Of a stretch of 64,000 nt of DNA, positions 31,815 through 61,613 are shown piece after piece. A program made the position numbers and the translations under genes. The DNA is from Escherichia phage ES17. The notes under the pieces were generated by a model. The model did not search any database, was not told the origin of the DNA, and saw only the letters and a program-made list of their open reading frames with translations. Positions within the stretch are counted from its first letter, which is position 1. Each line of letters opens with the position of its first letter. The stretch lies in the sequence record NC_070984.1, one strand, 5' to 3'.

Positions 31815-33104
<1,290 letters not shown>

Positions 33105-43307: not shown

Positions 43308-43964
43308 TTAACTCTCCAAAGTTTTCTTCAGAGCTGCCCATGAGATTGGGTAGAGCTTAGCCATCTCTTCATCTACGGATTTAGCAAACACTCGAACTTC
43401 ATATTGAGCGTGAGATGAGAGTCGCTGACGACACAACTCAAACCAGCCATACAAAGAACCAGTCCACACCCACTCAGTGATCATCCCCTGAGGAAGAACA
43501 AATCGAGCTTGCTCTGGTGCAATAAATTCAATCAACTTGTCATATGTTGCTAGAGAAGCTTCATATGCATCGTTAATTAACATTAATGCTTCAGCTCGCT
43601 CTCCGTCGATGAGTTGAATCCCTGAACCTGCATGGAGGTCCGAAGGTCTCGCAAAAATCTCTTTAGGGATGAAGACTTCAACTGCTCCATCTTTATACCG
43701 CCGGGACATTTCGTTCCACGAGAATCCAACCTGATGCTTGCCCAACTGTCTCGCAATTGCGATAGGTGCTTTGCATCGGAAACTGACTTGCGGGTGTCGG
43801 AATGGAGTACAGTGTTTTTCCCGTGCAAGGAAGTTGATAAGTTTTGTGTCTCTCTCATTTAAGTCACCTTCTCGAACAACACCGAAAGATACTCTAGCTG
43901 CATTGACTACAGATTTGTCACTACCCATTGCTTCAATCAGTGTTGCTTGTAGTTGTTCGTTCAA
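43308..43964 (-). CDS. thyX: Flavin-dependent thymidylate synthase family protein (ThyX-like)
   Basis: ThyX-type pattern ARVSFG...HCTPFRH...SRRY...ARFVLPQGMITEWVWTGSLYGWFELCRQRLSSHAQYEVR; the canonical RHR motif position appears as KHQ (by-eye alignment); TTG start with SD AAGGAA. Confidence 0.7.
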   Translation of the reverse strand: MNEQLQATLIEAMGSDKSVVNAARVSFGVVREGDLNERDTKLINFLAREKHCTPFRHPQVSFRCKAPIAIARQLGKHQVGFSWNEMSRRYKDGAVEVFIPKEIFARPSDLHAGSGIQLIDGERAEALMLINDAYEASLATYDKLIEFIAPEQARFVLPQGMITEWVWTGSLYGWFELCRQRLSSHAQYEVRVFAKSVDEEMAKLYPISWAALKKTLES

Positions 43965-44403
43965 TTAAAAGTTCCTTTTTTCGATTCATGTAAACTTGAT
44001 GAGCTTCTTCGGCAGTTCCATACATACCTAGATGTATATCTACTTTATCAATACAAATAACAGCCCTATATCTAATAGTCCCTGATTTATATTTGACAAC
44101 CTTAACACCTTGAAGCCCTGTTTCCTTGTTTGATACCCTAGCCCCGAACTGGTTGTGGCAGTTTGTCGAGGTGTCCACCAATCTCAAGTTCTGTATTGAG
44201 TTGTTCTTCTTATTTCTATCGATATGGTCTATCTGAGAAGAAGGCCACTCTCCATAGTAAAAGAACCATGCCACTTTATGAGCTTTGTGTACTTTCCCTT
44301 TAAACCGCAGGGTTATGTACTTACTTCGAGTTCCTCCTAATTTCTTACCTTTTCGAAAGAACTCTCCAGTCTCAGGGATATACTCTAAATCATCGATTAA
44401 CAT
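43933..44403 (-). CDS. HNH homing endonuclease with AP2-like DNA-binding domain
   Basis: EWPSSQIDHIDRNKKNNSIQNLRLVDTSTNCHNQ (HNH) followed by AP2-like GVKVVKYKSGTIRYRAVI. Confidence 0.75.
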   Translation of the reverse strand: MLIDDLEYIPETGEFFRKGKKLGGTRSKYITLRFKGKVHKAHKVAWFFYYGEWPSSQIDHIDRNKKNNSIQNLRLVDTSTNCHNQFGARVSNKETGLQGVKVVKYKSGTIRYRAVICIDKVDIHLGMYGTAEEAHQVYMNRKKELLIERTTTSNTD

Positions 44404-46761: not shown

Positions 46762-47271
46762 CTATCTTTCATCCACATTAAAGGATAGGTGAAGCCTACT
46801 TCTCATAGACTTCGCTAGGAGTTTTGCCTCTTCAAGAGTTTTCACTCCATATACAGACTCACGTTTACCATCTTTTTGAATAGATACACAGAATGTCCCG
46901 CCCTTCTCTTGGTAGACATTCTTAACTCCTAGTTTGTTATCAACCCTTGTCTTAGCATTCTGACTGTTCTCAGAGTGATAGCACTTTCTCAGGTTAGTTT
47001 CTTCTAGGTTTTCTCTGTTACCATCGGCATGATCTATTTGATATTCATCCGATAAATCCTCACCAGTATAAAGAACAAAAAGAATCCTATGATTGTGGAC
47101 ATGAACTCCTCCTAAGGGAATTTGATAATATCCATCTTTTGTGAGCTTGCCAGCAGGTTTACCTACTATATCATTAGCAAACTTACTAGGCTTCCTTTTC
47201 CAAGAAAGCCCTGAAGGTGATGACATGTCTATGTTAAAGAGATCAACTACTTCATCATAGCATATCAGCAT
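46762..47271 (-). CDS. HNH homing endonuclease with AP2-like domain
   Basis: HNHRILFVLYTGEDLSDEYQIDHADGNRENLEETNLRKCYHSENSQN plus AP2-like GVKNVYQEKGGTFCVSIQ; start at internal ATG 47271 with SD GGTGG; paralog of 43933..44403. Confidence 0.7.
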   Translation of the reverse strand: MLICYDEVVDLFNIDMSSPSGLSWKRKPSKFANDIVGKPAGKLTKDGYYQIPLGGVHVHNHRILFVLYTGEDLSDEYQIDHADGNRENLEETNLRKCYHSENSQNAKTRVDNKLGVKNVYQEKGGTFCVSIQKDGKRESVYGVKTLEEAKLLAKSMRSRLHLSFNVDER

Positions 47272-47809
47272 GATTTGTTCCACCAAAAGCTTTTGTTGGC
47301 CCTTGTTGGTTATTATATGAACCTTTCGTTGCGTAGCTGTCCTCTTCGGATGAAGAGTGTTTAAAGAATTCCATTTGACCAATACGCATTCCCGGTTTGA
47401 TCAGCAGAGAGTGATGCTGTAGAACATTCTTGAATTCCATAGTTAACTGGCTACCATGCCAACCGCCGTCAGCATGACCAGCGTGCATGTGCTCTAAGAA
47501 ACAACGACCAACAGTGGACCGTAGCATGAAATCGCAGCTAATATTATCTGGCAGATTGAATGTCTCCATTGTATGAGCCAAGAAACACTCACCCGGTTTG
47601 ATCACTAACCCTTCCTCTGGAATCATAACCTCATTGAAGTTAGGAGATTCTTTAGCAGAGATATCAACAACCCCGTTAGCTGCACCTTCCATTAGAACGC
47701 GATCTCCAATACGAACATCAATGCTGGAGGAATTAACAGCTGAGTGTGGTGCATCAATAACACCATCATCAATTAATTTATGTAACTCTGGACTTCCTAG
47801 TAAACTCAT
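47255..47809 (-). CDS. dcd: dCTP deaminase / dUTPase-fold enzyme
   Basis: 184 aa; N-terminal pattern ...LIDDGVID...SSIDVRIGDRV typical of dCTP deaminase. Confidence 0.75.
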   Translation of the reverse strand: MSLLGSPELHKLIDDGVIDAPHSAVNSSSIDVRIGDRVLMEGAANGVVDISAKESPNFNEVMIPEEGLVIKPGECFLAHTMETFNLPDNISCDFMLRSTVGRCFLEHMHAGHADGGWHGSQLTMEFKNVLQHHSLLIKPGMRIGQMEFFKHSSSEEDSYATKGSYNNQQGPTKAFGGTNHADML

Positions 47810-47818
47810 TCTTATTCC

Positions 47819-49132
47819 TTAGTTATTTGTTTCCATGTCAAAAGAGATTCCACGACCCGCTTCATCGGCAAACCGAACTGTACGGGTTTGAGGTTCTAAT
47901 ACTTCAGGGTTGTTAGCAATAAAGCGATCAGCGAGACTATCTCCCAAATCTTGTTCCATACCTTCATCAGTCCAGATAACACGAGAAGGGGCGTTGATAT
48001 CACCAACAGCGAAACCCTGACCAGAGAACTGACGTGCGCTAACAGTTAAGCCGTTTGGTCGACCACGAGAGGGTCTAGCCATCCATCGCTCCATAGAATC
48101 ACTTGTAATACCAAGAGCTTCTTCAAAAGATGTTCTACGAGTAGGGCTTTCTCTTCGTGACTCTTGTGCTCGACGCATTGCAGGGGCTACAAACACCCCT
48201 TCAATTGCATTGTGTCGGTTAGGTTCCTCTTCTCGACCAAGCAGATCACCACCCGTGTTAGTCGTTAAATTTGTCAACCCCTCAGACCAATACGCATGAA
48301 TCTGACCAGAACCGTGAAGACTAGACATAATCTGAATCTCTTCATAAGGGATTCCAAAGAATCGACTCATGTCTCGGTTAACACAATATAGAGCACTTGT
48401 TGTATCTTCAATAAGAGAAACCTGACCTAATCCATTGACTAGATGACTAACTGGCTGAGGTGTGGGAAGATATCGAGTTTGGGCCATGTATTGATGCGCA
48501 ACTGCTGGAGAGGAAAATCTCAACACTTGTGAGTTAGGCCACTTCTTGTGAACATACCTGATTTCACGACTAGAGACAACCACTGGACAAGGGGAAGTCA
48601 TAGCCAAATATCCGTGAGAAGTCATGAATAAGTTGTCAAGAGTCATCGCACCACGGCACATCATAGGAAAATTATCCAATACCTCTTCAATAGAAGTAGG
48701 ATAATTAAACATGAATTGGATACGAACCCCATTCCACTGAAACTCAATAATATCAGTGAATGTTAATTGAGAACCCCCAGCATAGGATTCGTTTGTAGCT
48801 TCAGCAAGAAGTGATGCATATTCAATATCTTGTGACTCTAGCCATTCCTTCACATTACTTTCAATCTCCCGTCCAAGCTCTTGCCAACGATCAGTTGGGA
48901 TGAAAGTGTTTTGAGTTCTTGGTGTTTGTCCTCTGACAATAAAGATATCAATGTCATGTGGAGCTATGTTATTAAGGACAGCATCACGAACAGCCCCACC
49001 AGTAATGATGGGACAGATACCATCTGGAATCAAGTTGTTGTTAATCAACTGTTCAATGAAGTGACGACCAACAGTGATATCAGGTTGTTGAGCAACCTTA
49101 TCTTCAATTTGGTTAATCGGGATAACAATCAT
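47819..49132 (-). CDS. Pol-beta-superfamily nucleotidyltransferase with CCA-adding-enzyme/poly(A)-polymerase-like head motif
   Basis: ITGGAVRDAVLNNIAPHDIDIFIV matches GGxVRD...DxD head-domain signature; about 300 aa C-terminal region of unknown function; start at ATG 49132. Confidence 0.5.
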   Translation of the reverse strand: MIVIPINQIEDKVAQQPDITVGRHFIEQLINNNLIPDGICPIITGGAVRDAVLNNIAPHDIDIFIVRGQTPRTQNTFIPTDRWQELGREIESNVKEWLESQDIEYASLLAEATNESYAGGSQLTFTDIIEFQWNGVRIQFMFNYPTSIEEVLDNFPMMCRGAMTLDNLFMTSHGYLAMTSPCPVVVSSREIRYVHKKWPNSQVLRFSSPAVAHQYMAQTRYLPTPQPVSHLVNGLGQVSLIEDTTSALYCVNRDMSRFFGIPYEEIQIMSSLHGSGQIHAYWSEGLTNLTTNTGGDLLGREEEPNRHNAIEGVFVAPAMRRAQESRRESPTRRTSFEEALGITSDSMERWMARPSRGRPNGLTVSARQFSGQGFAVGDINAPSRVIWTDEGMEQDLGDSLADRFIANNPEVLEPQTRTVRFADEAGRGISFDMETNN

Positions 49133-49133
49133 T

Positions 49134-49691
49134 TTACATTTTCCAATATAATGAAGGTGGGTCGTAAGGGTCAAATCCCGTGAGTTCACACAAGAAAAGA
49201 TAAACCTTAACAGTTAAGTTAACGTCCTGTTCACAATAAGTAAACATATCTTCAGTGAAAGCATCCCATGCTTCCTCTTGCTCACCATAATCGCCCTTAA
49301 GTTCTCCTAAGAACTCACCCCACTGCTTCAAACCATGACCCCTTGGGCCACGTCTAGGGTCGCCTTTCGGATACTCAGGACTGTCACCAATACGGTCAGG
49401 TTTAAGATATCGACTAAGACATAAAGTGTCGAAGACGTTAAAACGATAGTTAATCAGATTGGGATACATCTTCTTCAGAGCACAAAGGTCGAAGTCAATA
49501 ATATTGTGACCCACCAGTACATCTGCTTCTGTAAGTTTACGAATCCCATCTTCAATTTGGTGAGGCCGATAGCCCCACCTTTCACCAGTTTCAACATCGA
49601 AGATATAAATACACCATACTTTAGTTATGTCATCGTACAGTGCATTACTCTCGATATCGAATGCAAACACTTTCTTCTTTTTCTTTACCAC
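49134..49691 (-). CDS. DnaQ-like 3'-5' exonuclease, stand-alone proofreading domain
   Basis: Exo I FAFDIES, Exo [11 protein letters not shown], Exo III YCEQDV; encoded about 10 kb upstream of the polymerase domain gene. Confidence 0.8.
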
Positions 49692-51475
49692 GGTGAAGCT
49701 CCATCTGCTTGGTTGACGAGAGAAGCTGCATCCTCTCCGTTAGTTAAAACGAATGGATTATCTTCATCAACTTCAAAGTCTTCCCTTTCTACAAGTCTCC
49801 CGGTTTCACTGATATACTTAGTATAGCAGACACCTGTCTGACCGTAGTTACGTTCTTTCAGTAATCGAATGACTGAGAGGTTCTTAGCTAAGCCATCAGC
49901 TTGCTTGTCACGCTCAAAGCCAATGATACACTGACACCAACGCATAAGAGAACGAGAGCCAGTGAACTGCACTTCACGTACCTGTCCACCTTCTTCATGA
50001 GGAGCACCACCTGCCGGAGCATTAAGGTGAGATAGCACGAAAGCGGTAAAGTCTAATTCTTTGCACATACCAGCAAGCTCGGAAGCAATCTTACTGATTT
50101 CAGTGTTAATCTCTGAAGGTGTTAAATGGGACACCAGAGCGGTAATGTTATCAAGGATGATGAACTTACACTGGTTTTCAACTACCCAGAAACGGATACA
50201 CTGTTTAATGTCTTCCCATTCATTCTGTCCGAAGTTGTCATACAAGAAGAATTTGTCTGCATAACGAAGTGCTTCATTACGCAAATCCTCCTCATCATAT
50301 TCAACATCAGGTCGGTGGAAAGGAATTGATGCCGACTTACCAGCAATGTTCTTAACAGACATGCCTACCTTCTCTTCCAAGAAGAAGCCACCTCCATTAA
50401 AACCATGTTCTAAGCACAGATGAGCAACCAGCTCATGAGCAATGAGTGTTTTACCACTCCCTACTCCACCACCAATTGCTACCACCTCTCCCCATCGAAT
50501 ACCGAAGGTCATCTCATTCAGAGTCTTCCACGGATATGGGATACCCCACTCCGCTTTCTTCAGAGCATCATCAAGGCAATCAAAGATTGTTACAGCACCA
50601 GCAGGAGATTCCCGCTTTGCTGAGTACTTGAGAATGTTGAATAACTCTTGACCACGACCAGACAGAAGCATGTCATTCGCATCCTTAATCTCTTTCTCCA
50701 CACCGTTGTATGGGAAAGTTCCTTTAGGAATACGAGCAAACTTAACATGAGGGAATAAAGAACGACCTTTTGTTAAAGCTATCTCACCTGCATCATCGTT
50801 GTCCATGCAGAGCACAACCTCCTCAAAACCATTTACGAAGTCTCGATTACGAGACAACACAGAAGAGATTGAACCTGCACCGAACGGTAAAGAAACACAT
50901 GCTGGTTTGATGTTTGTTGCATTTGTAAAAGCTGTAAGGACATGGAAACCTGACATACAGGATAGCGGGTCTTCAAAAATGAACAGCTTCTTGTTGTACA
51001 CATCTCCACGTTGAGCTTGTGCCATACCAAACAAATCTGCTTCTTTCACACTGCCGACGTAATAGAACTTCTTACTATCTAGCAGCTTAACCTCATAACC
51101 AACGATGTTTCCATCACGTTCACGAGGAAAGAAGTAGCTGTCTGGTGTCTGACCATCAGTTTGACTGAGACCAATACGACACTCAAACCGCTCTGATACA
51201 GCTTTAGGGATTAAACGGCGAGTGAGTTCACCCTGAGGAAGCTCTAAGCAATCATCTAAGACTTCTCTCAACTCTTCAGGGGATAACTCTTTCTTCTCGT
51301 TTGGAGTAGGTGTAGTGCCCTTTTCGAACACTTCGTAATTCCCACAACGGTTACAACTTCCCCACTCCTCACCAGTCTCTTCGTTACGGAAGAGAATCAT
51401 GTGGTTGTGGGTTTTATCACGACCATGAGAGATACATTCCTTACAACCTGTGTCTCCCAAAATGATCTTTGACAT
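49685..51475 (-). CDS. DNA primase-helicase (T7 gp4-like)
   Basis: N-terminal Cys4 zinc ribbon CKECISHG...CNRCGNY; TOPRIM DxD ([12 protein letters not shown]); DnaB-family Walker [10 protein letters not shown]. Confidence 0.85.
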
Positions 51476-51501
51476 GCTCTTCCTCCTTGGAATCCTTGAG
51501 C

Positions 51502-51705
51502 TTAGTAGAACGAACGAATTTCATCCCACACTTGTTCCTGTTCTTTCCTATAAAAAGAAAGTTGGGTCTTGAACATCTCCACTGATGATTCAAAGTTTTT
51601 GGTTTGTGCAGCTTCAACGAAACGTTCATGTCGGTTGATTTTGCACCGTAGCATTAAATACTTGGCTTCAAGTCTCCGAAGAGCCTGCCTTTTCTCAAGA
51701 TTCAC
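51502..51705 (-). CDS. Hypothetical protein (67 aa)
   Basis: Basic helical ORF between GGACT-like gene and primase-helicase. Confidence 0.35.
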   Translation of the reverse strand: MNLEKRQALRRLEAKYLMLRCKINRHERFVEAAQTKNFESSVEMFKTQLSFYRKEQEQVWDEIRSFY

Positions 51706-52114
51706 TTTTCAGATACTCTGACCAGTCGCCAGATTCAACCAGAATATCTTGTTCTTCGTCGATATGATAAATCCAAGCGATAACAGTTTCACCTGAGTCC
51801 ATCTTAACAGCAATCTGAGTACGCTGATAGAAGCTGTCTTCAGGGCTACGTTTGTTGTAACCTTCCAGACGGTCATACGGACCTTCCAGACCTGCTTTGT
51901 CAGTAGCAAACACTTCTACACGAACAGGCTTATTGTTATTGCTGTGTGCGAGAGAGATGCTCGGGAAGTAGGAACCACCGTAACGGAACAGATCGAAGTT
52001 GTCTTCAGTCCAACCTTCACCAATTGACTTAGCACCAGCTCGGTCATTAACTAAATAGTTAGCTTGACCACGACGAAGAGAACCATAAGTTGCTACGTAA
52101 ATTACTTCTGACAT
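51695..52114 (-). CDS. Gamma-glutamyl cyclotransferase-like protein (AIG2/GGACT fold)
   Basis: YVATYGSLRRGQANY (YGSL motif), LDRLEGY, VIAWIYHI characteristic of AIG2/GGACT family. Confidence 0.65.
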   Translation of the reverse strand: MSEVIYVATYGSLRRGQANYLVNDRAGAKSIGEGWTEDNFDLFRYGGSYFPSISLAHSNNNKPVRVEVFATDKAGLEGPYDRLEGYNKRSPEDSFYQRTQIAVKMDSGETVIAWIYHIDEEQDILVESGDWSEYLKSES

Positions 52115-52183
52115 TATCTATACCTTTGTTGGTTTGTTTAGTTTATCCGAACTAGCCTCATCTTTCGAAGAGGCTAAAGCAGA

Positions 52184-52369
52184 TTACTCTGTAATAAAGA
52201 TTTTGATTACACCGCAGATTGCTGCACTTTCAAACACTGCAACAGCTTCACTTCCTTGAAAGAAGGCCACTTTGCCATCAGAGAAGTTAAACATGTCAGC
52301 ATCGAGGTCCATTGCTCGCATCTCACCAGCTGCATTGGTATCTTTAAACAGAACTTTATACTTATTCAC
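52184..52369 (-). CDS. Hypothetical protein (61 aa)
   Basis: ORF within amide-ligase operon. Confidence 0.35.
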   Translation of the reverse strand: MNKYKVLFKDTNAAGEMRAMDLDADMFNFSDGKVAFFQGSEAVAVFESAAICGVIKIFITE

Positions 52370-52614
52370 AGATATGTTACTCCCTTGTCTTGTTGTGCTT
52401 CAGTGATGATACGCTCTACACATTCCATAGAGTACTTATCACCACGTTTTAGGAAAGTTACAATTGCAGAGAATTGATTACCAATCATTCGCTGATTAGT
52501 AATACCCAACTCCTCACACAATTTACGCAACTCTTTACGAGAGCCTACAATAAGAGGCTCTTTTTGTTCCATCATTCCATTTTGTACTAGATCTTCCAAT
52601 GAAAACATATCCAT
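52366..52614 (-). CDS. Hypothetical protein (82 aa)
   Basis: ORF within amide-ligase operon; overlaps neighbours by 4 nt. Confidence 0.4.
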   Translation of the reverse strand: MDMFSLEDLVQNGMMEQKEPLIVGSRKELRKLCEELGITNQRMIGNQFSAIVTFLKRGDKYSMECVERIITEAQQDKGVTYL

Positions 52615-52620
52615 ATATCC

Positions 52621-53823
52621 TTAGTAGTTTACAACAGTGCCATCATTCAGGGTAAGGTTATTAATCTGCAACACACGACCAAGCTGACGATCACTAATTG
52701 GTGCGTTCCATCCAGAGCGGTAGAAGTTACGACCACAGAAGAACAAGATCACATTACTTGCTACAGTTGAACCATTTTCAGGATGCTTGATGTTAGCGAT
52801 ATAATAACCACGACGCAGATTACGACGGGTTACAGGGTTGATCTCTAACCCTTGCTCTTCAACCTGCATTATTTCAGGGACAGGCTCCGAAGACTCTTCA
52901 ACAACTGGCTCGGAGCTTTCCGCTGATAGTGCGTAATCCTCATCACCTGCTGGTGAAAATGTTTCTTCCACTTCTTCCACGGGAAGTTCGTATGCAACAC
53001 GGTAGTCAGGCTCAACACCAGAGAAGCTCTTAACAAACTCAACGATGTTGTGAGTGTAGGTTTCCAGAGTTGTGCCAGTCAGGCCCGGAGCTGTATTAAC
53101 TTCCAGAACCCAAGCGTTAGTACCTTTGCTAATCAGGTCAACAGCACCGAAGTTCAAACCCAGAGCAGATACAGCTTTGTGAGCTTGAATCAGAACTTGA
53201 TCAGGAGGCGCTTCAGTGAAGGAGTTAGAATAAACCCAACCAGTATGATGGTTACGAATATCTTCACGATAGCTTTCCAGTTCACGATAACCATTACGAC
53301 GAATCTTCTTCTGAACGTAAGTGATAACACCTTCGAACACATGAACACGCCATTCACGACGTGGGCCTTGGATGCCTTTGGTGTACAGAGGAGCATCCGC
53401 AACACCTTCTCGCGGAAGACGAACAGTGATCCCCTCACCAGAGTGACCAGTCAAGGTTGCACGTTCATAAACAATTTCATTCCGGTTCCAGTTCTGAGCT
53501 ACTTCACGATCTACGGTGTATTCAACAGTTTTGACTTCAGCTAAACGCAGTGCGTTAAATGCTGCAACTTTGTTAGCGGCTCGGTTCAAGGCAACCACAG
53601 AGTTCAATACAGTTGCACCGCCAAAGAAAGAATCATTATATCGACGGTTTCCGTAGTTGACAACAATATCACCAACTCGAGAACGATAACGAGAACCCTC
53701 TGATACCAGAGACATTACGTTAGCATTTAGTCGAAGTTCCTGAATCTTAGTGTTAATTGCAGAAGTAAGTTCACGAACTGAATCAGAAGGGCCATAAGGA
53801 AGAACACGGATACGAGTAGTCAT
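52621..53823 (-). CDS. ATP-grasp ligase (RimK/glutathione-synthetase-like) with C-terminal extension
   Basis: 400 aa; ATP-grasp patterns EWRVHVFEGVITYVQKK, GLNFGAVDLISKGTNAWVLEVNTAPGL; C-terminal about 110 aa unknown. Confidence 0.65.
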   Translation of the reverse strand: MTTRIRVLPYGPSDSVRELTSAINTKIQELRLNANVMSLVSEGSRYRSRVGDIVVNYGNRRYNDSFFGGATVLNSVVALNRAANKVAAFNALRLAEVKTVEYTVDREVAQNWNRNEIVYERATLTGHSGEGITVRLPREGVADAPLYTKGIQGPRREWRVHVFEGVITYVQKKIRRNGYRELESYREDIRNHHTGWVYSNSFTEAPPDQVLIQAHKAVSALGLNFGAVDLISKGTNAWVLEVNTAPGLTGTTLETYTHNIVEFVKSFSGVEPDYRVAYELPVEEVEETFSPAGDEDYALSAESSEPVVEESSEPVPEIMQVEEQGLEINPVTRRNLRRGYYIANIKHPENGSTVASNVILFFCGRNFYRSGWNAPISDRQLGRVLQINNLTLNDGTVVNY

Positions 53824-53825
53824 TG

Positions 53826-54050
53826 TTAGATACCTTTAAGTTTAAGAATTTCGTTACGAGTTTTTTGAATCTGAGCTTCAATTTCGAAGTAGTCATTGAA
53901 CGCATCGTTCTCTACTTCATCGGATGGTGCATCAATCAGACCGAAAGCGAACGGATACAGCTTTCGCTGCTCCGTTACCAATTCGATATGAACTCCTATG
54001 TAATACTGTAGGAGAGTAATCTTCGGTTTCTTAGGAACCAGATTTGACAT
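53826..54050 (-). CDS. Hypothetical protein (74 aa)
   Basis: ORF within amide-ligase operon. Confidence 0.35.
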   Translation of the reverse strand: MSNLVPKKPKITLLQYYIGVHIELVTEQRKLYPFAFGLIDAPSDEVENDAFNDYFEIEAQIQKTRNEILKLKGI

Positions 54051-54264
54051 GAGGTTCTACCTTAATGCCTTTGATTTTTACATAATCAGCAAGCACGTTG
54101 TTGATCACCGTTGGGAAAGGAACCTCAACCTGTGTTTCAAGTACTTGACCAATACCAGCTTGCATCCACTTCTGGATTGCACGAAGGTTATCACATCCTG
54201 TGCTCGTCATCGGGATACGTCGAGTAGTTACAACGTTATCCAGCATCATCTTACGAATTTCCAT
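54031..54264 (-). CDS. Hypothetical protein (77 aa)
   Basis: ORF within amide-ligase operon. Confidence 0.35.
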   Translation of the reverse strand: MEIRKMMLDNVVTTRRIPMTSTGCDNLRAIQKWMQAGIGQVLETQVEVPFPTVINNVLADYVKIKGIKVEPHVKSGS

Positions 54265-54266
54265 AC

Positions 54267-56297
54267 TTAACCTCTATTCAATGAACATTTAGGAGAATTA
54301 CAATAAACTTGATTCATAGAACCAAGCGTACAACTTTCAGCATCGCGCCACGGAATCTGCTTAAAACACTCTGAGCAGTATCCGAGGGTTGACCACATTG
54401 CTTTGGTGAAGTCAGTGCTTCGGTTTCCGTCGAAGCTGACGACAGTTTTGCGGAGAGCTGTTCGTGATTCAGGAAACACACCTGCTTTCTCAGCAGGTTC
54501 CTCCTTTTTTGGCTTAGTTGAGATTGCAAAAATACTGTTGCTACGTTTCTCAACATAAGCATCAACAACATCCTCCAGAGTGATGCCTGTCTGTTTCGCT
54601 GAGGAAGGTAATACAGTCATACGACCGATCATATCTTCAGTTACACGTAAAGCGAATTCAGGACGACGGGCGTTTGTTGTATCTGTTGCTTTAATCCAGA
54701 CATAACCATCTTTGATCGTAGCATTAGACACTTTCTTCTTTACTTCTACAGCGCAGACTTTACAGATATCTTCACCACGAAGACGACTAAGTTCATCATC
54801 GAACTCATTCTCTGTTTTAACTTCACCGCAGATTTCACAAACACCAATAGGAGTTTCCTCCTCTTCTTCCTCTTTAGGTTTAGTCAAACCTTCCAGACAT
54901 TCAGGATGCCAATAGCACTGATATGCGAAGACTGCTTTAGGTGCATCCTTCCAATCAATGTGCTTATCACAACCACCACAATCACCATGAGAGTGCGCTT
55001 CCCAGAATTTACGAGTGATAGTAACACCATTCTTGTTGACGAAACTATCATTCATATCAAAAGGGATATCATCATCGAAGTCAGCAGTAGTTGACTCAGG
55101 CTCCTTTTTCTCCAGAGATGGGTCAACAAAACGACCTGCTGTGATCACTAAACGGACCATAGCATTGACTTCGGAGATGCAGGATACTGTCCCACGGTAA
55201 ACAATTTTAGGGTCTTTCAGGGCATCCTGATAAGCCTTAATGTCTACGTTATGAACATCACCTTCGATATACTCTTGAGATTTCTCATCGTAGATATAAC
55301 CAATCATCTTACCACGAGAAGGAACAGCACCGGCAGTTGCATAAGGAACAAACTCATGCGGAGTGATTTCCACAGTCATATCGCGGCGAATATCAATGTT
55401 TCGATCGCTTGCGATTTTGTTTTGACTTACCACTGCGTTTCTTCGACGAACGTCTGCCGCTGTCACACCCGGCTTCGTGTCGTAAGGATTGCTTGTACTG
55501 CTTTTTGAGGAACTTTGATAGTTGCTTTGGCTGTAATTGTTCGAGTAGTAATTGCCCCAACGATTGACTACCGTAAAAACCGGAAGCTCGTGGGCGACCT
55601 CTTCAACCAGTGTCATGCTGTTATTAGACATGTCAAAGATATACTCTGTACCAACTTTACACTCAAAATGCTCATCAATACGGTTCTTGTGAGACTTCGA
55701 ACGCTTCAGAATCCACATCAGCATATCTTCTTCAGAAGCGCCAAACCAATCTCTGTTACAACGTGCGAGATGGAAAGGACGCTCTTCGTTACGAATGATA
55801 TGAAGGCGGTTATCAGAAGCATCATGCCAGATTAAGGTGAAAGCACCATCCAGCTTTTGAATAGTCTCTGCTGCACCAATAGTGTTAATAGAGTGGCAGA
55901 TGTTCTCACTATCTACCTCGAAGTTTTTACTGTCAGGTAACAGGTCTTGGTCCATCAAGGTTCCATTATGAACCAGAGTGATGTTACCATGTTGGAAAGG
56001 ATGGGCGTTCTTGGCGTTAACTGCACCTTTCGTTGCATGACGGCTGTGACCAACAATCCATGAAGGTGCTACAGTGTAAGCTGTTTCACCAGTGGTGTGC
56101 TTCTTGTACTCATCTTGTAGGATGAATGCGAAAGAAGGAAGAGCTTCTTTATAAGTGAAGACTTCCTTAGTACTTTTACGCTGACCAAAGATACCGGAGG
56201 AATGTTGTCCTCGGAATACTCCAGCATAAAAGAGTTGGTTAAATACGTCTAAATCAGTGCTTGACAGATTACCGCCAGCTAATACGATGCCACAAAT
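54267..56297 (-). CDS. Class-II (Ntn) glutamine amidotransferase domain protein with Cys-rich zinc-ribbon C-terminal region; probable ATT start codon
   Basis: Reading frame is open from stop at 56301..56303; N-terminus (ATT)CGIVLAGG...FRGQHSSGIFGQRK matches Ntn GATase N-terminal Cys nucleophile; SD AGGTGG 7 nt upstream of ATT at 56295..56297; no ATG/GTG/TTG in frame before 55958; three CxxC clusters in C-terminal half. Confidence 0.6.
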   Translation of the reverse strand: MCGIVLAGGNLSSTDLDVFNQLFYAGVFRGQHSSGIFGQRKSTKEVFTYKEALPSFAFILQDEYKKHTTGETAYTVAPSWIVGHSRHATKGAVNAKNAHPFQHGNITLVHNGTLMDQDLLPDSKNFEVDSENICHSINTIGAAETIQKLDGAFTLIWHDASDNRLHIIRNEERPFHLARCNRDWFGASEEDMLMWILKRSKSHKNRIDEHFECKVGTEYIFDMSNNSMTLVEEVAHELPVFTVVNRWGNYYSNNYSQSNYQSSSKSSTSNPYDTKPGVTAADVRRRNAVVSQNKIASDRNIDIRRDMTVEITPHEFVPYATAGAVPSRGKMIGYIYDEKSQEYIEGDVHNVDIKAYQDALKDPKIVYRGTVSCISEVNAMVRLVITAGRFVDPSLEKKEPESTTADFDDDIPFDMNDSFVNKNGVTITRKFWEAHSHGDCGGCDKHIDWKDAPKAVFAYQCYWHPECLEGLTKPKEEEEEETPIGVCEICGEVKTENEFDDELSRLRGEDICKVCAVEVKKKVSNATIKDGYVWIKATDTTNARRPEFALRVTEDMIGRMTVLPSSAKQTGITLEDVVDAYVEKRSNSIFAISTKPKKEEPAEKAGVFPESRTALRKTVVSFDGNRSTDFTKAMWSTLGYCSECFKQIPWRDAESCTLGSMNQVYCNSPKCSLNRG

Positions 56298-56376
56298 TTT
56301 CTAATCCACCTGAAGGGTAAACCCTTTCATCTAATTAACCTTTAAATTGTGCCCCTTTATCAGAGGCACCCATTGA

Positions 56377-57480
56377 TTACAGCGCTTGCTCTAACTGATT
56401 TTCCAGATGGTCTGGAATGTACCCTGTGATATTGCTATCACTGTGACCTGACTCACGTAGTAAGTCAAAAATAGCACGGATACGCTGTTCTGGAGCGTGT
56501 CTTACTTGAGATAGGTCTGCTGTACGAAGCATAACCAAAATCTCTTGGTACAAGTTGTTAGCGTTCCCTCGGACATACCCAAGGAAGCCATAGAAGTCTG
56601 ACATAAGACGTAAGTCAACAAGAGCCTCTCCGTTGGAGTTGGTTCGACGTAAACGAATACGACCAGACTGTTCTACTTCATGAGAACGGCAATACAAAAC
56701 ATCACGGGCCATACAATATCCTGAATGCAAATCAGATTCATCCAGATTGTAATCCAGAGGAAGGTAAGGAAGCATTGGGGCAAATCGTACAGTATTTAAG
56801 TGCTCAATAAACTGATCATTGCTCATATCTGCGTTATCTAAAGCCAGCTTCTTCAACATCAAGAAGCGGTTAACCAGATTGAGAAGTTGACCACGTTTCC
56901 ACTTAGGCTCACTGATACGGAACTCAATTGAACCGTATTGGGCAAGTGGCAGAAGGTTCAGAGATGTATATTTATCCCATGAACGAACCAGACGGTTGAA
57001 GAATTCTTCACCATCGTAGTTAAATGCGTCAGAGGCATTCATTACCTGTGCTTGTACCACTGCAAACGCAGGGCAGAAATTGCTACGGTAACGATGGTAG
57101 CCTGAACACTTGAACAGCATCTTTTCATAGAAGGTCCAAGCAAGGATGGTCTTCTTGAGGATATTACTATCAGCATCCCTCATATCCATATGAACGTGAG
57201 TAGAGCAACGCCAAGTCCCCTCGGCGTGCGATTCAGCTACTGCTTCACTCAGGTTGTTGATAGCGTCTAACAACTCCTGTCCGTTGTAAGGTCGTGAACA
57301 TACCATTTCACAACCGTTACGCAGGGAACCATCCTCTGTGCAATCCCACATATCTGCTTCGATATGTTCAGAACCTTCGAGTTCAAGTTCAATACCGACA
57401 CCGCACTGAAGTGCAATTGAACTATGCGCCTCAGTTAAACGACCTTCTCGATATCCAAAAGTTTGCGCTACAGTTGTCAT
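56377..57480 (-). CDS. Glutamine-synthetase-fold amidoligase (COOH-NH2 ligase family)
   Basis: 367 aa; LQCGVGIELELEG (ExE metal-binding strand), DGSLRNGCEMV, STHVHMD (HxH). Confidence 0.6.
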   Translation of the reverse strand: MTTVAQTFGYREGRLTEAHSSIALQCGVGIELELEGSEHIEADMWDCTEDGSLRNGCEMVCSRPYNGQELLDAINNLSEAVAESHAEGTWRCSTHVHMDMRDADSNILKKTILAWTFYEKMLFKCSGYHRYRSNFCPAFAVVQAQVMNASDAFNYDGEEFFNRLVRSWDKYTSLNLLPLAQYGSIEFRISEPKWKRGQLLNLVNRFLMLKKLALDNADMSNDQFIEHLNTVRFAPMLPYLPLDYNLDESDLHSGYCMARDVLYCRSHEVEQSGRIRLRRTNSNGEALVDLRLMSDFYGFLGYVRGNANNLYQEILVMLRTADLSQVRHAPEQRIRAIFDLLRESGHSDSNITGYIPDHLENQLEQAL

Positions 57481-58094
57481 AACGAATCCACCAACGTAAT
57501 ATTATAATTGCTAAGGTTTTCAGAGATGTGATGAAAATGCTCCAGAAGTCGCATCGGTTGTTGACCATAAGAGTCACGAGGTGCTTCCAGATCTACCTGA
57601 CCTACCAGTGCACCTTTATAATGCACTTTACCATCTGTAGGATTGATGTAAATATAACGAGTAACCAATCCATCAAATTCAGGATTGAACAGACTGTAAA
57701 CCATTTCACCAGAGATCGAACGACCAATTCCAGGAGCGTTTCGAATCTTGTTACCCATCAAACCCTTCGCTCTCTGACGAACAGGGTTGATATGAGTCCA
57801 GCTTACAGTGTTACCGTTATGGAACAGATAACCAACATCAGGTGATTCAAGAATCAAGGTTGGGTCGAACACTGGAATATTCATCGTAGTGTTTCGGAGA
57901 TTCCCATGCTCGTTCTTGTACCACTGCTCTACAACAAAATACAGAGCCTGTTCTGCTTCATGCGAGAAGTCATCGCTGCGGAAGTTACCGCTCTGCTCAA
58001 CACCAATCACAAAACACGGAAGGTTGATATTGCCTGCTCGTTTAGCAATCCATGTACCATTATAGTAATGAGAAAAATCAGCTACTAAGCTCAC
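57477..58094 (-). CDS. Hypothetical protein (205 aa) within amide-ligase operon
   Basis: ATGA overlap with upstream amidoligase gene. Confidence 0.45.
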   Translation of the reverse strand: MSLVADFSHYYNGTWIAKRAGNINLPCFVIGVEQSGNFRSDDFSHEAEQALYFVVEQWYKNEHGNLRNTTMNIPVFDPTLILESPDVGYLFHNGNTVSWTHINPVRQRAKGLMGNKIRNAPGIGRSISGEMVYSLFNPEFDGLVTRYIYINPTDGKVHYKGALVGQVDLEAPRDSYGQQPMRLLEHFHHISENLSNYNITLVDSL

Positions 58095-58103
58095 GATAAC
58101 CTC

Positions 58104-58910
58104 TTATGCTACCTGAAGGAGTTTGATCTGCTGGTCAGCTTCTTTAACGTTGTTCCCGTTAATGATTTCATGAAGCTTCTCAATCGGAAGGCGAGAGTGC
58201 AATGCCATCAGGGTGGACATATCACACTGCTGAACAACCTTGTCAACCTGATCGTAAACAAACTTACGGTTTTCACGATCACTAATCCAGAAGTTAGACA
58301 GAGAACGGTATTCAATACCATAGTCTTTATAACGGATTGCAGATGCTTTACCGTAGAGTTCTTTACGGCGAGTATCTTTGTCCATAATTACTGCTGGGAG
58401 AGACAGGAAGTAGTCACACAACACACCCAGCATCATCTGAGTTTGCAGAGTGATATCCAAAGCACCAACTACGCCAAGATGTACGTGACCACCGGCAGTA
58501 CGAAGTCCCTTATTCTGAGAAGTCGGGGATGGGTTTTTCTGACCAGTGAAGGCGTTGAAATCAGGAGTGCACCCGAAGATGAACGCTGATTCATTAAAGG
58601 TCTTCATTTCTTCTTCGGTGAAGATGTGAGAGCTAACACCCGGAGCTGTTTCCATGTCCAGTTTGTTCAGGACATTATTGGTAAGATCGATACCACGTTG
58701 CATGTTATCGTTAAACGCTTCAAAACCGCTCTGTGGGTCGATATCAAACTCAGCCAGTACGTTGTCCTCTTGAAGACGAACATCTTTAGCCAGAGTGATC
58801 TTATCGTCCTTAGAACAGCCTAATAGACCAGCTACAGAGGTGATGATACCATTACTGGTACGAACGAACATTTCAGGGTCAGAGCCGATAAGGAATTTGC
58901 GCTTAGTCAT
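58104..58910 (-). CDS. Second amidoligase-like protein (GS-fold, putative)
   Basis: 268 aa; FLIGSDPEMFV and GGHVHLGV resemble strand-Glu and HxH motifs of the amidoligase family; weaker than 56377..57480. Confidence 0.4.
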   Translation of the reverse strand: MTKRKFLIGSDPEMFVRTSNGIITSVAGLLGCSKDDKITLAKDVRLQEDNVLAEFDIDPQSGFEAFNDNMQRGIDLTNNVLNKLDMETAPGVSSHIFTEEEMKTFNESAFIFGCTPDFNAFTGQKNPSPTSQNKGLRTAGGHVHLGVVGALDITLQTQMMLGVLCDYFLSLPAVIMDKDTRRKELYGKASAIRYKDYGIEYRSLSNFWISDRENRKFVYDQVDKVVQQCDMSTLMALHSRLPIEKLHEIINGNNVKEADQQIKLLQVA

Positions 58911-59874
58911 TGTAATACTCCACTAGTTCAGAAAAGAGAGATGAGATTGTGTTACCAACTTCTTCAGGAGTAAGACCGGAATCTTCTCCAGTTCTTTGAA
59001 TCAGTCGGGCTATAAAGTTTTGTACTGTAATGTTTCCCAACTTGTCGTCTATGGTTTCACGTTTATGACCATGACAAGTGGACCAGAGTCTTAGCCACTC
59101 TGACATTGTTGCATATTCAGCTGGGTCTTGATCTTTAGCAAGAGCAAATCTTCGTAAGGTCTCTGGGTTATGGTTACGAACATAGCCGTTCTCATTGTAA
59201 CCAACACCAAAAGGGTTTTGAACCCATACTTGATTCGTGTATTCATCAGAGTCTACAACCAAAGGAAGGAATGCTGATGCTGGCATATTGTAGTTAATAA
59301 CAATAGATGTGCTCTCACTGCTCCCATTGGATCTTCCTTGTTGAGTCCACCCTCCAAAGAAGTCACGACCCAACCCAGCTAACACTAGAGCGATGCCGAT
59401 GCGTTTACGCTTCAGCCACTCTTCCCTGTCTTCAATTCCTTCTGCTAGGAAATCCATTCCACGATACTGCCCTTCCAGAATGCTACGGAAGAGCATAAGT
59501 CCTGTGAAGATCTGATCTGCTGGATGCTCACGAAGGTTGACAGCAACACTATTCGCTGAAGTGATCGTAAATACGTCACGATAGCAAGACATGGAGTTCA
59601 TAATGTCTGCTGTTTCAACTAAGTTCTTTTCGATATCAGATGTAACATGACCGTGAAAAGAGTGAGTCCAGTAATTCAACATCTCCAGTTGCAAGTTGAT
59701 ATCACGGTTGAAGCTACGATAGCGCCCTTCTTCCGTGATAACTTCACCATTAATGTCATTTACCCACTGGCCTTGCATGTGGTTGTGGATACCGAAGCAC
59801 CCACGACCTAAGAACTTCTGTTCCCCTAAATCCTGTTGAAGATTCAGAGGTACGATCGTTGTGGAGATTGACAT
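58903..59874 (-). CDS. Hypothetical protein (323 aa) within amide-ligase operon
   Basis: Overlaps downstream gene by 8 nt. Confidence 0.45.
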   Translation of the reverse strand: MSISTTIVPLNLQQDLGEQKFLGRGCFGIHNHMQGQWVNDINGEVITEEGRYRSFNRDINLQLEMLNYWTHSFHGHVTSDIEKNLVETADIMNSMSCYRDVFTITSANSVAVNLREHPADQIFTGLMLFRSILEGQYRGMDFLAEGIEDREEWLKRKRIGIALVLAGLGRDFFGGWTQQGRSNGSSESTSIVINYNMPASAFLPLVVDSDEYTNQVWVQNPFGVGYNENGYVRNHNPETLRRFALAKDQDPAEYATMSEWLRLWSTCHGHKRETIDDKLGNITVQNFIARLIQRTGEDSGLTPEEVGNTISSLFSELVEYYND

Positions 59875-59884
59875 AACTAACCTT

Positions 59885-61084
59885 TTATTTTCCTAAAAAT
59901 AATCCGCTCATAACACCATCCCACTCAGAGGATGGAATCACTGAATACTCCGAACTTTGGTCCAGAGTCCCACTACTAAATCGCTGAATAATGTTGTAGA
60001 TGTTGAACAGGTCTTTAGCCTCGGCACGAATGCCGTAGATTAACCTGTTAGCTGTTCTCTCATTTTTAGACACGCGACGGGTAAAGTTAATCAGAAGGTT
60101 GTCACATTTCAGGATTTCCGATTCACTCTCTACTAAGTCGGGGTGCATCACCGGCAAGAACATCGAGTTATTAACTCGTAATTCTGCTGTTTCATCATTC
60201 TCATAATGAATCCACTTAAAATCTTCATCACGGAAATGACCGCATCCATCCCTATACGACTGTTGACGCCAAGGCACTTGAAATGCTTCAGCATATTTAT
60301 CAGCCATACCAACTGTAAACAGTGACGCTGGGAAGATACAAGCATCCCAATCATTACCGACCAGAGTTGCTTTCGTTTCGCCCAAGAGGTTGGTGTAGGT
60401 GCTAACCATTCGTGAGTAAACGTAAGCCTGAAGGATTGTCCAGCCTTCAACCAACCATTTATGAAGGAAGGTTTCCACTTGGCTCTCTTCATCTTCACAA
60501 TAGAAGGTTCGGTCTAACATCAAATAGAACAGACAACGATCAGCAGGGATATTCTCAGTTGCTACCCCCATAAAACCTTTATCGTGCCAGCGTAAACAGG
60601 AGGGACGATCTTTGTCCACAAATGCTTCCATAGCTTCCAGTACAGCACGAGGTGTGGTTCGATGCTCAGGGTTTTTGTCGTTCCAACGTTCGATGTTGTT
60701 CTTAGGTGGCGTGTCTTCATCTTCATACGAACACCAACTTAAAGCTTCAGCTACATGCTTTTCATCACGCCAACGTCTAAAACCTAACATCTTCATATGA
60801 GTTCCAGAGTTCCAGATATGCTTGATTTTACACATATCCATCTCTCGGCTTAACAGGAACTCTTCCCCATCAGCACTACGAACGTTAGCTTCTTCATGCC
60901 ACACTCGAACGTGCATATTCCATCCATGAGTTGCCTCATACATGTTAGGGTCGAAGTAGTCATCGTACTCTTCATCGTCTTCATCAACGCCACCGTTATA
61001 GTTGCGAAGCTGAAGGAACCCATAACAAGGAGGGTTGACTGTTAAAACATTACCTTCAGTATCTTCTAATGTTACTGGAAACAT
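59885..61084 (-). CDS. Hypothetical protein (399 aa) within amide-ligase operon
   Basis: Large ORF, acidic N-terminus; no recognisable motif. Confidence 0.45.
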   Translation of the reverse strand: MFPVTLEDTEGNVLTVNPPCYGFLQLRNYNGGVDEDDEEYDDYFDPNMYEATHGWNMHVRVWHEEANVRSADGEEFLLSREMDMCKIKHIWNSGTHMKMLGFRRWRDEKHVAEALSWCSYEDEDTPPKNNIERWNDKNPEHRTTPRAVLEAMEAFVDKDRPSCLRWHDKGFMGVATENIPADRCLFYLMLDRTFYCEDEESQVETFLHKWLVEGWTILQAYVYSRMVSTYTNLLGETKATLVGNDWDACIFPASLFTVGMADKYAEAFQVPWRQQSYRDGCGHFRDEDFKWIHYENDETAELRVNNSMFLPVMHPDLVESESEILKCDNLLINFTRRVSKNERTANRLIYGIRAEAKDLFNIYNIIQRFSSGTLDQSSEYSVIPSSEWDGVMSGLFLGK

Positions 61085-61460: not shown

Positions 61461-61613
61461 TTACTCCTGTTGTTTACACTCGTCAATAACCCACTGATAA
61501 GTGGATTGCCCAGAAAAGAAACACTGAATAAATCCAGATGTTCTCTGCGTTACCAGTGCTAGTGCACAAATCACTACCGCTGCTGCTAGCAGTTTTAAAT
61601 CTAATTTAGACAT
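61461..61613 (-). CDS. Small membrane-anchored protein (50 aa)
   Basis: ATG 61613 with SD GAGAGGA; N-terminal hydrophobic segment LKLLAAAVVICALALV; below ORF-track cutoff. Confidence 0.3.
   Translation of the reverse strand: MSKLDLKLLAAAVVICALALVTQRTSGFIQCFFSGQSTYQWVIDECKQQE

Follow-up and report, generated by a model that had tools for sequence, protein, structure and literature searches.

A widespread amidoligase cassette in Escherichia phage ES17 and its predicted gamma-glutamyl intermediate

Escherichia phage ES17 (sequence record NC_070984.1, analyzed over 64,000 nucleotides (nt), hereafter the window) carries a minus-strand gene array at 51695..61084 that holds a phiEco32-type amidoligase cassette. 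The genes of this cassette are inherited together, point the same way and are expressed; they encode soluble enzymes whose families make or break gamma-glutamyl-type amide bonds, as a first-pass annotation made from the sequence alone had recognized. We consider it moderately probable that the cassette encodes a cytoplasmic pathway for an amide-linked adduct, which would be made by way of a gamma-glutamyl intermediate that is removed later. The proposal draws on direct observation of family membership, conserved catalytic residues, gene order, expression and an exchange between two enzyme families, GGACT and Peptidase_C26.

The cassette is already known, having been described by inference, and the 'peptidoglycan' label attached to it in print names a hypothesis. 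It was reportedly first predicted from genomes by Iyer, Abhiman, Burroughs and Aravind in 2009, and Hardies is said to have described it in 2013 in RIO-1-like podoviruses; both accounts are known to us through citing papers. The phiEco32 cassette is credited to Iyer 2009 in PMC10580990 and PMC11706807. Duhaime 2017 described a seven-gene 'peptidoglycan modification cassette' in RIO-1, phiEco32, 7-11, PA11, tf, MR299-2, LUZ24, PaP3 and CW02, and suggested a cell-surface change that prevents superinfection (PMC5498523). The observation is thus not new: the cassette is both the type example of PF14395 and the conserved podovirus cassette of PMC5498523. The statement of the first-pass annotation that such neighborhoods had been predicted only computationally, with no assigned product, agrees with full-text literature searches to mid-2026, in which no experiment on the cassette and no product came to light. 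Added here are the recognition of a 205-amino-acid (aa) protein as a core member, the GGACT/Peptidase_C26 exchange, a leader preceding an ATT start codon, and the fixed gene order.

The ES17 array ends in a predicted cyclotransferase of the GGACT family (PF06094, E 3.6e-17, 63.5 bits against a cut-off of 22.8), whose sequence includes YGSL and LDRLEGY with the conserved Glu of LDxxEGY. Zobellviridae-like cassettes lack GGACT and instead encode a Peptidase_C26/class-I amidotransferase-fold protein (E 9.9e-17). The Peptidase_C26 family includes gamma-glutamyl hydrolases such as PuuD, and the substrates of GGACT and C26 enzymes are free gamma-glutamyl amines with a free alpha-amino group, not protein-bound residues. 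Across all 92 loci compared, GGACT occurs alone in 49, C26 alone in 26, both in one and neither in 16. After dereplication at 70% Amidoligase_2 identity, complete loci with at least four genes on both sides gave 18 with GGACT alone, 19 with C26 alone, one with both and nine with neither (Fisher p 1.6e-5, a value that overstates independence because the loci are phylogenetically clustered and the exchange amounts to a few replacement events). Since the two families are unrelated, replace each other and share the removal of a gamma-glutamyl group from an amine, a gamma-glutamyl amide would be made and later cleaved. Their near-exclusivity is the best evidence available that such an amide may be an obligatory intermediate.

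Cassette genes are found well beyond the relatives of ES17. A tblastn search with the COOH-NH2 ligase returned 305 phage records with hosts including Escherichia, Pseudomonas, Vibrio, Aeromonas, Proteus, Salmonella, Cronobacter, Klebsiella, Citrobacter and Cellulophaga, and a pattern scan of IMG/VR returned at least 553 contigs. Clustering of genes in the 92 loci placed Amidoligase_2 in 88, the glutamine amidotransferase (GATase) in 85, the COOH-NH2 ligase in 81 and the ATP-grasp ligase in 79. Wherever all are present, across at least three architectures, the order is constant: COOH-NH2 ligase, a protein of ~200 aa (family u or v), Amidoligase_2, GATase, ATP-grasp. A clearly different arrangement was seen in one fetched locus, that of the crAss-like Cellulophaga phage phi14:2, where the five enzymes are reordered between DNA primase and uracil-DNA glycosylase and the 200-aa protein is missing. 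With coliphages, Pseudomonas therapy phages, marine podoviruses and a crAss-like phage among its carriers, the cassette ranks among the most widespread enzyme sets of virulent phages without a known product. An identified product would explain what two orphan Pfam ligase families and one orphan fold do, and would settle a cell-wall hypothesis that has been copied among annotations for 15 years without test.

Expression is documented in relatives. Mass spectrometry of crude SU10 lysate detected gp82 (ATP-grasp, 6 peptides), gp85 (GATase, 9 peptides), gp78 (GGACT), gp86 (Amidoligase_2) and gp91, the 120-aa protein encoded upstream, and the SU10 cassette was assigned to the early-gene block by homology with phiEco32 (PMC4281155). 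In the LUZ24-like phage PaP3, PaP3p44 and PaP3p47 are orthologues of cassette genes, and ORFs (open reading frames) 22-56, including the replication genes, are middle genes (PMC4707531). The cassette was found in 97 of 97 records carrying the ES17-type primase/helicase; this constancy, together with the detection of four SU10 enzymes as proteins, indicates that it presumably contributes to infection.

Organization of the gene array

By sequence, the window comes from a Kuravirus, a phiEco32/SU10-like E. coli podophage: the 9.4-kb region is, over its full length, 95-96% identical in DNA to dozens of Kuravirus Escherichia phages, among them SU10, MN03 and BASEL Bas90/91. The array matches SU10 gp078-gp090 and follows the order of phiEco32 genes 77-88 (phi32_77-88), the first large protein, X1, being 94.7% identical to its phiEco32 counterpart. 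SU10 has one additional small gene after GGACT that the ES17 window lacks. PF14395, PF12224, a class-II GATase and an ATP-grasp ligase stand in one co-oriented array in ES17, and its five enzyme families and their position upstream of the primase/helicase are those of the phiEco32-type cassette, with no difference in kind. In transcription order the features are as follows.

59885..61084, minus strand: X1, 399-aa acidic protein; first large gene of the array, no annotated family
58903..59874, minus strand: X2, 323-aa protein with invariant residues; may be an enzyme
58104..58910, minus strand: COOH-NH2 ligase type 2 (glutamine-synthetase/GCS-like amidoligase), PF14395
57477..58094, minus strand: 205-aa core accessory protein; family common to cassette types, beta-rich model
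56377..57480, minus strand: Amidoligase_2 (glutamine-synthetase (GS)-like ATP-dependent carboxylate-amine ligase), PF12224
56298..56376, minus strand: GATase leader, a conserved sequence with hairpin, 9-codon mini-ORF, small hairpin, Shine-Dalgarno AGGTGG and ATT start
54267..56297, minus strand: class-II (Ntn) glutamine amidotransferase, 676 aa; GATase_6, GATase_7
54031..54264, minus strand: DUF7195 small protein, 77 aa; PF23825, E 4.7e-17
53826..54050, minus strand: 74-aa protein, no assigned function; phrog_13464
52621..53823, minus strand: RimK-like ATP-grasp ligase, matched by a profile of 28 orthologues to RimK structures; phrog_2599, phrog_20552
52366..52614, minus strand: phiEco32 gp79 homologue, 82 aa, 81/82 identical to phi32_79
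52184..52369, minus strand: 61-aa protein, no assigned function; phrog_8591
51695..52114, minus strand: GGACT/AIG2-like predicted gamma-glutamyl(amine) cyclotransferase, PF06094

The first-pass annotation had described thirteen tightly coupled genes with gaps below 15 nt. Its strand and coordinates were correct, the count of minus-strand ORFs in 51695..61084 is 12, and two junctions exceed the limit. Nine junctions are tight, with overlaps of 4, 4, 8 and 20 nt and gaps of 2, 2, 6, 9 and 10 nt; the two loose ones measure 79 nt (56298-56376, before the GATase gene) and 69 nt (52115-52183, before GGACT). Following the cassette in transcription order are a small ORF, the primase/helicase gene (49685-51475) and the exonuclease subunit of a split DNA polymerase. 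That these genes are mere neighbors in an early/middle transcription block, and not one functional unit, has next to no plausibility: an unrelated regulator and lineage-specific small ORFs do lie among the enzyme genes and the two gaps do break the tight packing, but the same four to six genes recur in the same order in 92 loci of very different phages while their flanks change completely.

Eight ORFs had initially been counted as unknown. Five of these, the 61-, 74-, 205-, 323- and 399-aa proteins, indeed match no annotated family in Pfam, NCBIfam or PHROG, whereas the 77-aa protein belongs to DUF7195 and the 82-aa protein is the regulator gp79, with 81 of 82 residues identical to phi32_79. 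According to the Severinov laboratory, phi32_gp79 is a small RNA-polymerase-binding protein with two effects, inhibition of the host sigma-70 RNA polymerase holoenzyme and activation of the phage sigma factor, and it is absent from 7-11 (PMC8948821). Numbering in the literature is inconsistent, the SU10 paper calling the gp79-type regulator gp73 (PMC4281155); the name gp79 used here follows the locus tag and the laboratory of the original description. We find its gene within the array only in the phiEco32 subgroup, and missing from the 7-11-like locus and every non-Kuravirus-type cassette, which argues that gp79 was inserted into the array and takes no part in the amide chemistry.

The remaining small proteins are also restricted in distribution. 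DUF7195 occurs in 14 of 92 loci; it is conserved in Kuravirus/Grimontviridae-type cassettes, is present in one LUZ24-like contig and has homologues in Vp_R1 and 3H10_20. Homologues of the 74-aa protein are confined to the group of E. coli phages and the metagenomic sequences nearest to it. The 61-aa protein has a marginally hydrophobic C-terminus (maximum Kyte-Doolittle 19-residue score 1.93). We rejected the idea of a LysW-like amino-group carrier, as neither the small proteins nor the 205-aa protein has an acidic C-terminal tail.

X1 has no match in Pfam, NCBIfam or annotated PHROGs, and tblastn recovered it in 96 records, all but three from Escherichia or Shigella phages, with identity falling from 90+% to 40-45% between genera. 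X2 has the invariant residues C26-F-G, D120, R130, E187, Y231 and D276 and may be an enzyme; its structural model is fair (predicted local distance difference test, pLDDT, 73.8), and a search for structural relatives found none. Both proteins are restricted to the phage supergroup of ES17 and are the fastest evolving of the cassette, with 42% and 52% identity to ECBP2. The first-pass annotation had proposed that the unknown proteins may confer specificity; X1 and X2 may do so, whereas the 205-aa protein is a core component shared by the cassette types. Small alignments compared with hhalign gave a weak hint that X1 and X2 are paralogues, and no signal that either is a divergent GS-like ligase, although this comparison has low power and also missed the link between the two known GS-like families. 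Along 49685-61084, ECBP2 (L009) retains 95% protein identity in the primase/helicase and 42-84% in the cassette proteins, X1 being lowest and DUF7195 highest. Either rapid evolution or recombination at the cassette boundary would account for this difference.

Catalytic components and the predicted pathway

Every sequence motif quoted in the first-pass annotation was found, and so were its five enzyme families: GGACT, GATase, Amidoligase_2 and the COOH-NH2 ligase exceed their Pfam cut-offs, and ATP-grasp is recognized by a profile of 28 orthologues. The COOH-NH2 ligase matches PF14395 (E 2.2e-8, 34.1 bits against a gathering cut-off of 25), a family named 'Phage phiEco32-like COOH.NH2 ligase-type 2' with the phiEco32 cassette as type example; DPE, K34, E54, R137, H142, H144, E200 and R202 are invariant over 10 lineages. 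Amidoligase_2 matches PF12224 (E 4.5e-8, 33.7 bits against 22), and 28 orthologues share E31, E33, E35, S52-L-R54, E58, H95, H97, E119, R130, E186 and R188; among these, E31, E33, E35, E58, H95, H97, E186 and R188 represent the Glu, His and Arg residues that bind metal and phosphate in GS-like ligases. Sequence and profile searches of the PDB found no solved relative of either GS-like ligase.

The third ligase falls below the Pfam cut-off as a single sequence (E 0.004 and 0.0096). Against solved structures, the 28-orthologue profile matched RimK (7qyr, E 5.9e-11; 4iwx/5zct, E 4e-8), with D-Ala-D-Ala ligases next. Residues K85, R121, G129, G131, E157, R159, H161, K173, D229, E241 and N243 are invariant, so that the ATP-binding Lys, glycine-rich loop and E-x-N Mg site of the ATP-grasp superfamily accompany the profile match. 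The ATP-grasp region occupies residues 1 to ~270; an acidic linker and a C-terminal domain of 82 aa come after it. By score this protein is not RimK (27.7 bits against a cut-off of 143 for TIGR00768; 20.5 against 331 for PRK10446), and the annotation 'ribosomal protein S6 glutaminyl transferase' reflects resemblance, not family membership. It shares with the RimK family the ATP-grasp fold and the conserved ATP- and Mg-binding residues; it differs in its C-terminal domain and in having no RimA/RimB partners.

The GATase matches GATase_6 (E 1.1e-14, 55 bits against 27) and GATase_7 (E 3.6e-6) and contains the glutamine-binding motifs HSRHAT, NAHP, HNG and DSE. Its match to the GlmS N-domain (E 3.7e-11) lies far under the family cut-off, and scores of 42, 36, 25, 21 and 20 bits against NCBIfam equivalog cut-offs of 219-418 indicate that it is not GlmS, PurF, AsnB or EgtC. 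The GenBank label 'glutamine-fructose-6-phosphate aminotransferase' is consequently unjustified. Total length varies by lineage from 279 to 680 aa through the C-terminal part, whose ~450 aa in ES17 bear three pairs of Cys motifs, the three CxxC clusters noted initially. Residues ~230-676 gave no Pfam, NCBIfam or PDB sequence match to a recognizable acceptor (synthase) domain. The GATase gene always directly follows Amidoligase_2, which together with the intact glutamine-binding motifs suggests that it supplies ammonia to a GS-fold ligase. From this invariant adjacency we infer that Amidoligase_2 is its partner, and the presence of a separate removing enzyme in the cassette makes it less likely that the Ntn GATase is just another hydrolase.

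Between the two GS-like ligases lies the gene for the 205-aa protein. A profile of this family joins the Kuravirus, Grimontviridae, Lahexavirus and LUZ24 versions and also matches the 'v' family, which occupies the same position in marine and Zobellviridae-like cassettes, identifying the protein by sequence as a core component found across cassette types. A HMMER search of 1.84 billion representatives returned 133 clusters, nearly all of 170-225 aa and aligned from residue 1. The N-terminus is conserved (MSLxxDFxxYY) and the C-terminus is not. An AlphaFold model built with 103 sequences (pLDDT 94.3) consists largely of beta strands with three short helices; compared with BFVD it matched family members, and compared with the PDB it gave just weak small-barrel matches and no enzyme-like relative. 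No catalytic motif was found in the protein, and a search for a fused 205-aa domain inside the longer phi14:2 amidoligase gave no match. We read the modeled protein as a probable non-catalytic adaptor or scaffold.

In the pathway that we propose, each of the three ligases would activate a carboxylate with ATP and couple it to an amine, and one of the bonds so made would be a gamma-glutamyl amide. The amidotransferase would most likely draw ammonia from glutamine to amidate a carboxylate, and the 205-aa protein would serve as the adaptor or scaffold. GGACT would act last, releasing the gamma-glutamyl group as 5-oxoproline, so that glutamate would be a transient handle or protecting group, or the product would be turned over. 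No transmembrane segment or signal sequence was found in the cassette enzymes, which places the chemistry in the cytoplasm. The sequence of the reactions, the tasks of the individual ligases and the nature of the acceptor are predictions. With low confidence, we favor a soluble acceptor in the cytoplasm, either an amine or a peptide-like compound such as a precursor peptide of the cell wall, a polyamine or an amino acid; we consider an acceptor of this kind most likely, a protein less so and DNA the least.

Known systems offer parallels to this logic. The PuuA/PuuD pathway gamma-glutamylates putrescine with a GS-fold ligase, modifies it and frees it with a C26 gamma-glutamyl hydrolase. By analogy, the many phage cassettes that carry a C26 enzyme may follow the same logic, although they have no oxidase or dehydrogenase and their middle steps would be further ligations and amidation. 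In butirosin biosynthesis, the ATP-dependent ligase BtrJ adds a gamma-glutamyl protecting group that BtrG, an AIG2/GGCT-fold enzyme, removes as 5-oxoproline; the phage cassette lacks the acyl carrier protein, decarboxylase and acyltransferase of that pathway. The glutathione/gamma-glutamyl cycle (GshA, GshB, GGT, GGCT) uses the same folds, namely a GCL-like ligase, an ATP-grasp enzyme, an Ntn hydrolase-type enzyme and a gamma-glutamyl cyclotransferase, but the cassette has no family-level match to GshA, GshB or GGT and contains two GS-like ligases and an extra adaptor.

Several observations weigh against a gamma-glutamyl pathway of this kind. Every step past family membership is a prediction for every component, and the GGACT/C26 exchange reflects a few replacement events. 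Nine dereplicated cassettes have neither remover in the available flanking DNA. Class-II GATase-fold proteins can be gamma-glutamyl hydrolases, as is EgtC, to which the match is weak, so the role of ammonia donor is a prediction from sequence. A conserved non-catalytic beta-rich subunit is more typical of macromolecule-directed systems than of small metabolites. The cassette proteins are 42-84% identical to those of ECBP2 where the primase is 95% identical, a rate of divergence seen more often in genes for host interaction than in metabolic ones.

Cell wall, protein and DNA as alternative targets

The best-known alternative is modification of peptidoglycan or the envelope. Here the peptide side chains of cytoplasmic murein precursors would be extended or amidated and their gamma-glutamyl links trimmed, yielding an altered surface that, for example, excludes superinfecting phages, or allowing wall material to be recycled. 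Bacteria do modify wall peptides with pairs of ATP-grasp and class-II amidotransferase enzymes, as in the D-Asp ligase with AsnH and, by analogy, MurT/GatD. The proposal was put forward by Iyer 2009 and Hardies 2013, according to PMC5498523 and PMC10580990, and is purely inferential. D-Ala-D-Ala ligases are the nearest solved ATP-grasp relatives after RimK, and all named hosts of cultured cassette phages are Gram-negative with similar murein chemistry. Yet enzymes without a signal peptide or membrane segment could reach only cytoplasmic precursors, no Mur-ligase, transpeptidase or lipid-II-related gene lies alongside the cassette in the 92 loci, and a short-cycle virulent phage would gain little by remodeling a wall that is soon destroyed. 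In many loci, moreover, primase/helicase and DNA polymerase genes lie downstream of the cassette, and no lysis gene appeared among the Pfam-scanned neighbor families. We regard a wall-directed function as improbable, though it fares best among the alternatives.

Somewhat less probable still is the tagging of proteins, whereby the RimK-like and GS-like ligases would place glutamate or a short peptide on a host or phage protein in the manner of RimK-S6 or PafA-Pup, with the 205-aa protein as substrate adaptor and GGACT or C26 recycling released gamma-glutamyl products. RimK enzymes are the closest solved relatives of the phage ATP-grasp, but its 27.7 bits against the RimK cut-off of 143 argue that it is not an orthologue. 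A non-catalytic beta-rich subunit across cassette types would suit recognition of a macromolecule, and fast evolution of X1 and X2 would fit adaptation to host targets. Protein tagging fits poorly with GGACT and C26, which are enzymes of free gamma-glutamyl amines, and the cassette encodes no conserved candidate substrate with an acidic C-terminal tail. Modification of host proteins has been proposed by the Aravind group for other phage ATP-grasp families (PMC4431377).

A bolder possibility, to which we give little credence, is that the product is a gamma-glutamyl-masked, amide-linked compound or tag acting against bacterial immunity. The cassette occurs in tractable E. coli K-12 phages (BASEL Bas86-93) with unexplained restriction resistance, and such a product would explain the restriction-modification resistance of Gordonclarkvirinae without a known anti-restriction gene. 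It might inhibit defense enzymes, as a small-molecule or protein-directed agent, or be an adduct on DNA that is sequence-limited, and X1, X2 and the beta-rich subunit would supply target recognition.

Hypermodification of DNA or nucleotides, in which a base in phage DNA or a dNTP precursor is decorated, was among the three candidate targets of the first-pass annotation and proved the least supported of them; we consider it very unlikely. It would explain the same in-vivo restriction-modification resistance, and the cassette adjoins primase/helicase in several lineages and primase and uracil-DNA glycosylase in phi14:2. Pfam amidoligase and amidotransferase genes also co-occur with thymidine-hypermodification genes in viral metagenomes (PMC8989533). 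The thymidine-hypermodification clusters of Lee et al. 2021 thus resemble the cassette in these domains, present in some clusters, and in that the cassette lies in a DNA-metabolism block. Their defining enzymes, dUMP hydroxymethylase, the DNA kinase 5-HMUDK and aGPT-Pplase, were not found among ~45 minus-strand ORFs scanned at 29.5-61.6 kb (not every small ORF). That scan, which also compared the ten commonest unlabeled neighbor families with Pfam, revealed no DNA kinase, hydroxymethylase, transglycosylase, glycosyl- or aminoacyl-transferase to DNA, or TET/JBP enzyme.

For a DNA target the first-pass annotation had pointed to adjacent nucleotide-metabolism genes. ThyX (43308-43964) and dCTP deaminase (47255-47809) are present, but at a distance of 4-8 kb and not adjacent. 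ThyX, of interest also for the dU-DNA idea of the BASEL paper, is an ordinary member of the Thy1 family, and the kinase gene that had been placed near the cassette is not among the scanned ORFs. DNA of relatives is cut by restriction enzymes: that of the cassette-bearing phage tf was digested with RsaI, HpaI, EcoRV, SmaI and HaeIII and then cloned, and phiEco32 termini were mapped via restriction profiling. Strong avoidance of restriction and methylation sites is likewise expected for DNA that is exposed to restriction, not globally protected. Compared with second-order Markov simulations of the 64-kb window, sites are depleted for CCWGG (8 observed versus 99 expected), PstI (0 versus 21), NcoI (0 versus 13), BamHI (1 versus 11), KpnI (3 versus 13.5), GATC (131 versus 282) and EcoRI (8 versus 25.5), and enriched for EcoRV (38 versus 20) and CAGCAG (93 versus 51).

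The amidotransferase leader and neighboring genes

The GATase ORF at 54267-56297 is real only if translation begins at the ATT codon 56297-56295, and it escapes ordinary ORF finders. The codon for the catalytic Cys comes next (ATT-TGT, 56297-56292). Upstream of the start there is a good Shine-Dalgarno sequence at a distance of 8 nt, and a stop codon at a distance of two codons. In 82 of 85 cassettes the Cys-Gly-hydrophobic motif stands right behind ATG, ATT or TTG, with ATT in 12, and ATT starts have arisen independently in three other cassette lineages (L005, L034, L059).

The leader preceding this start (56298-56376) contains 55 consecutive bases that are invariant over Kuravirus, Suseptimavirus and KBNP1711 (Gordonclarkvirinae), exceeding the conservation of the flanking genes. 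Its 9-codon mini-ORF, ATGAAAGGGTTTACCCTTCAGGTGGATTAG, stops 3 nt ahead of the ATT and contains the Shine-Dalgarno AGGTGG of that start. The upstream hairpin (hairpin 1) shows a compensatory change in ECBP2, and the folding z-score of the leader is just -1.77. Together, this arrangement suggests translational coupling or control of a gene with a rare start codon.

Scans for sigma-70-like promoters and terminators performed no better than chance or were uninterpretable, and the phage-sigma (gp36) promoter motif TAATGTATA was not found on the minus strand at 51-64 kb. Ahead of the cassette are genes for a 120-aa basic protein and a 50-aa ORF (61461-61613, minus strand) with a strongly hydrophobic N-terminus (Kyte-Doolittle 19-residue score 2.28). 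Just upstream, at 61657-61640 (minus strand), a terminator-like hairpin with a T-run lies within a 235-nt non-coding stretch, and this stretch may mark the start of the transcription unit.

Further observations concern the replication and nucleotide-metabolism genes of the window. A weak match to the PolyA_pol/CCA-adding nucleotidyltransferase head domain (E 0.0023) is all that was recognized in a 456-aa protein (47819-49189, minus strand), which continues in a long C-terminal extension. A 'tRNA nucleotidyl transferase' also lies near the cassette in Vibrio phage WD615, the counterpart in SU10 was detected in its proteome (PMC4281155), and the BASEL authors speculated that proteins of this type are related to DNA modification. 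The 109-aa protein at 42566-42895 (minus strand) comprises only the N-terminal NAD+-binding Ia domain of NAD-dependent DNA ligase (PF22745, E 3.9e-35), and is labeled 'DNA ligase' in relatives although it has no ligase catalytic domain. Four minus-strand genes resembling HNH-family homing endonucleases (43933-44403, 41208-41657, 46762-47382 and 40790-41119) are spread across this block, one directly upstream of ThyX and one overlapping the dCTP deaminase region. Finally, the SLOG-family YAcAr domain, a nucleotide-binding fold known from conflict systems, is matched just below threshold by a 130-aa protein (31811-32203, minus strand; E 5.9e-6, 26.4 bits, cut-off 28.2).

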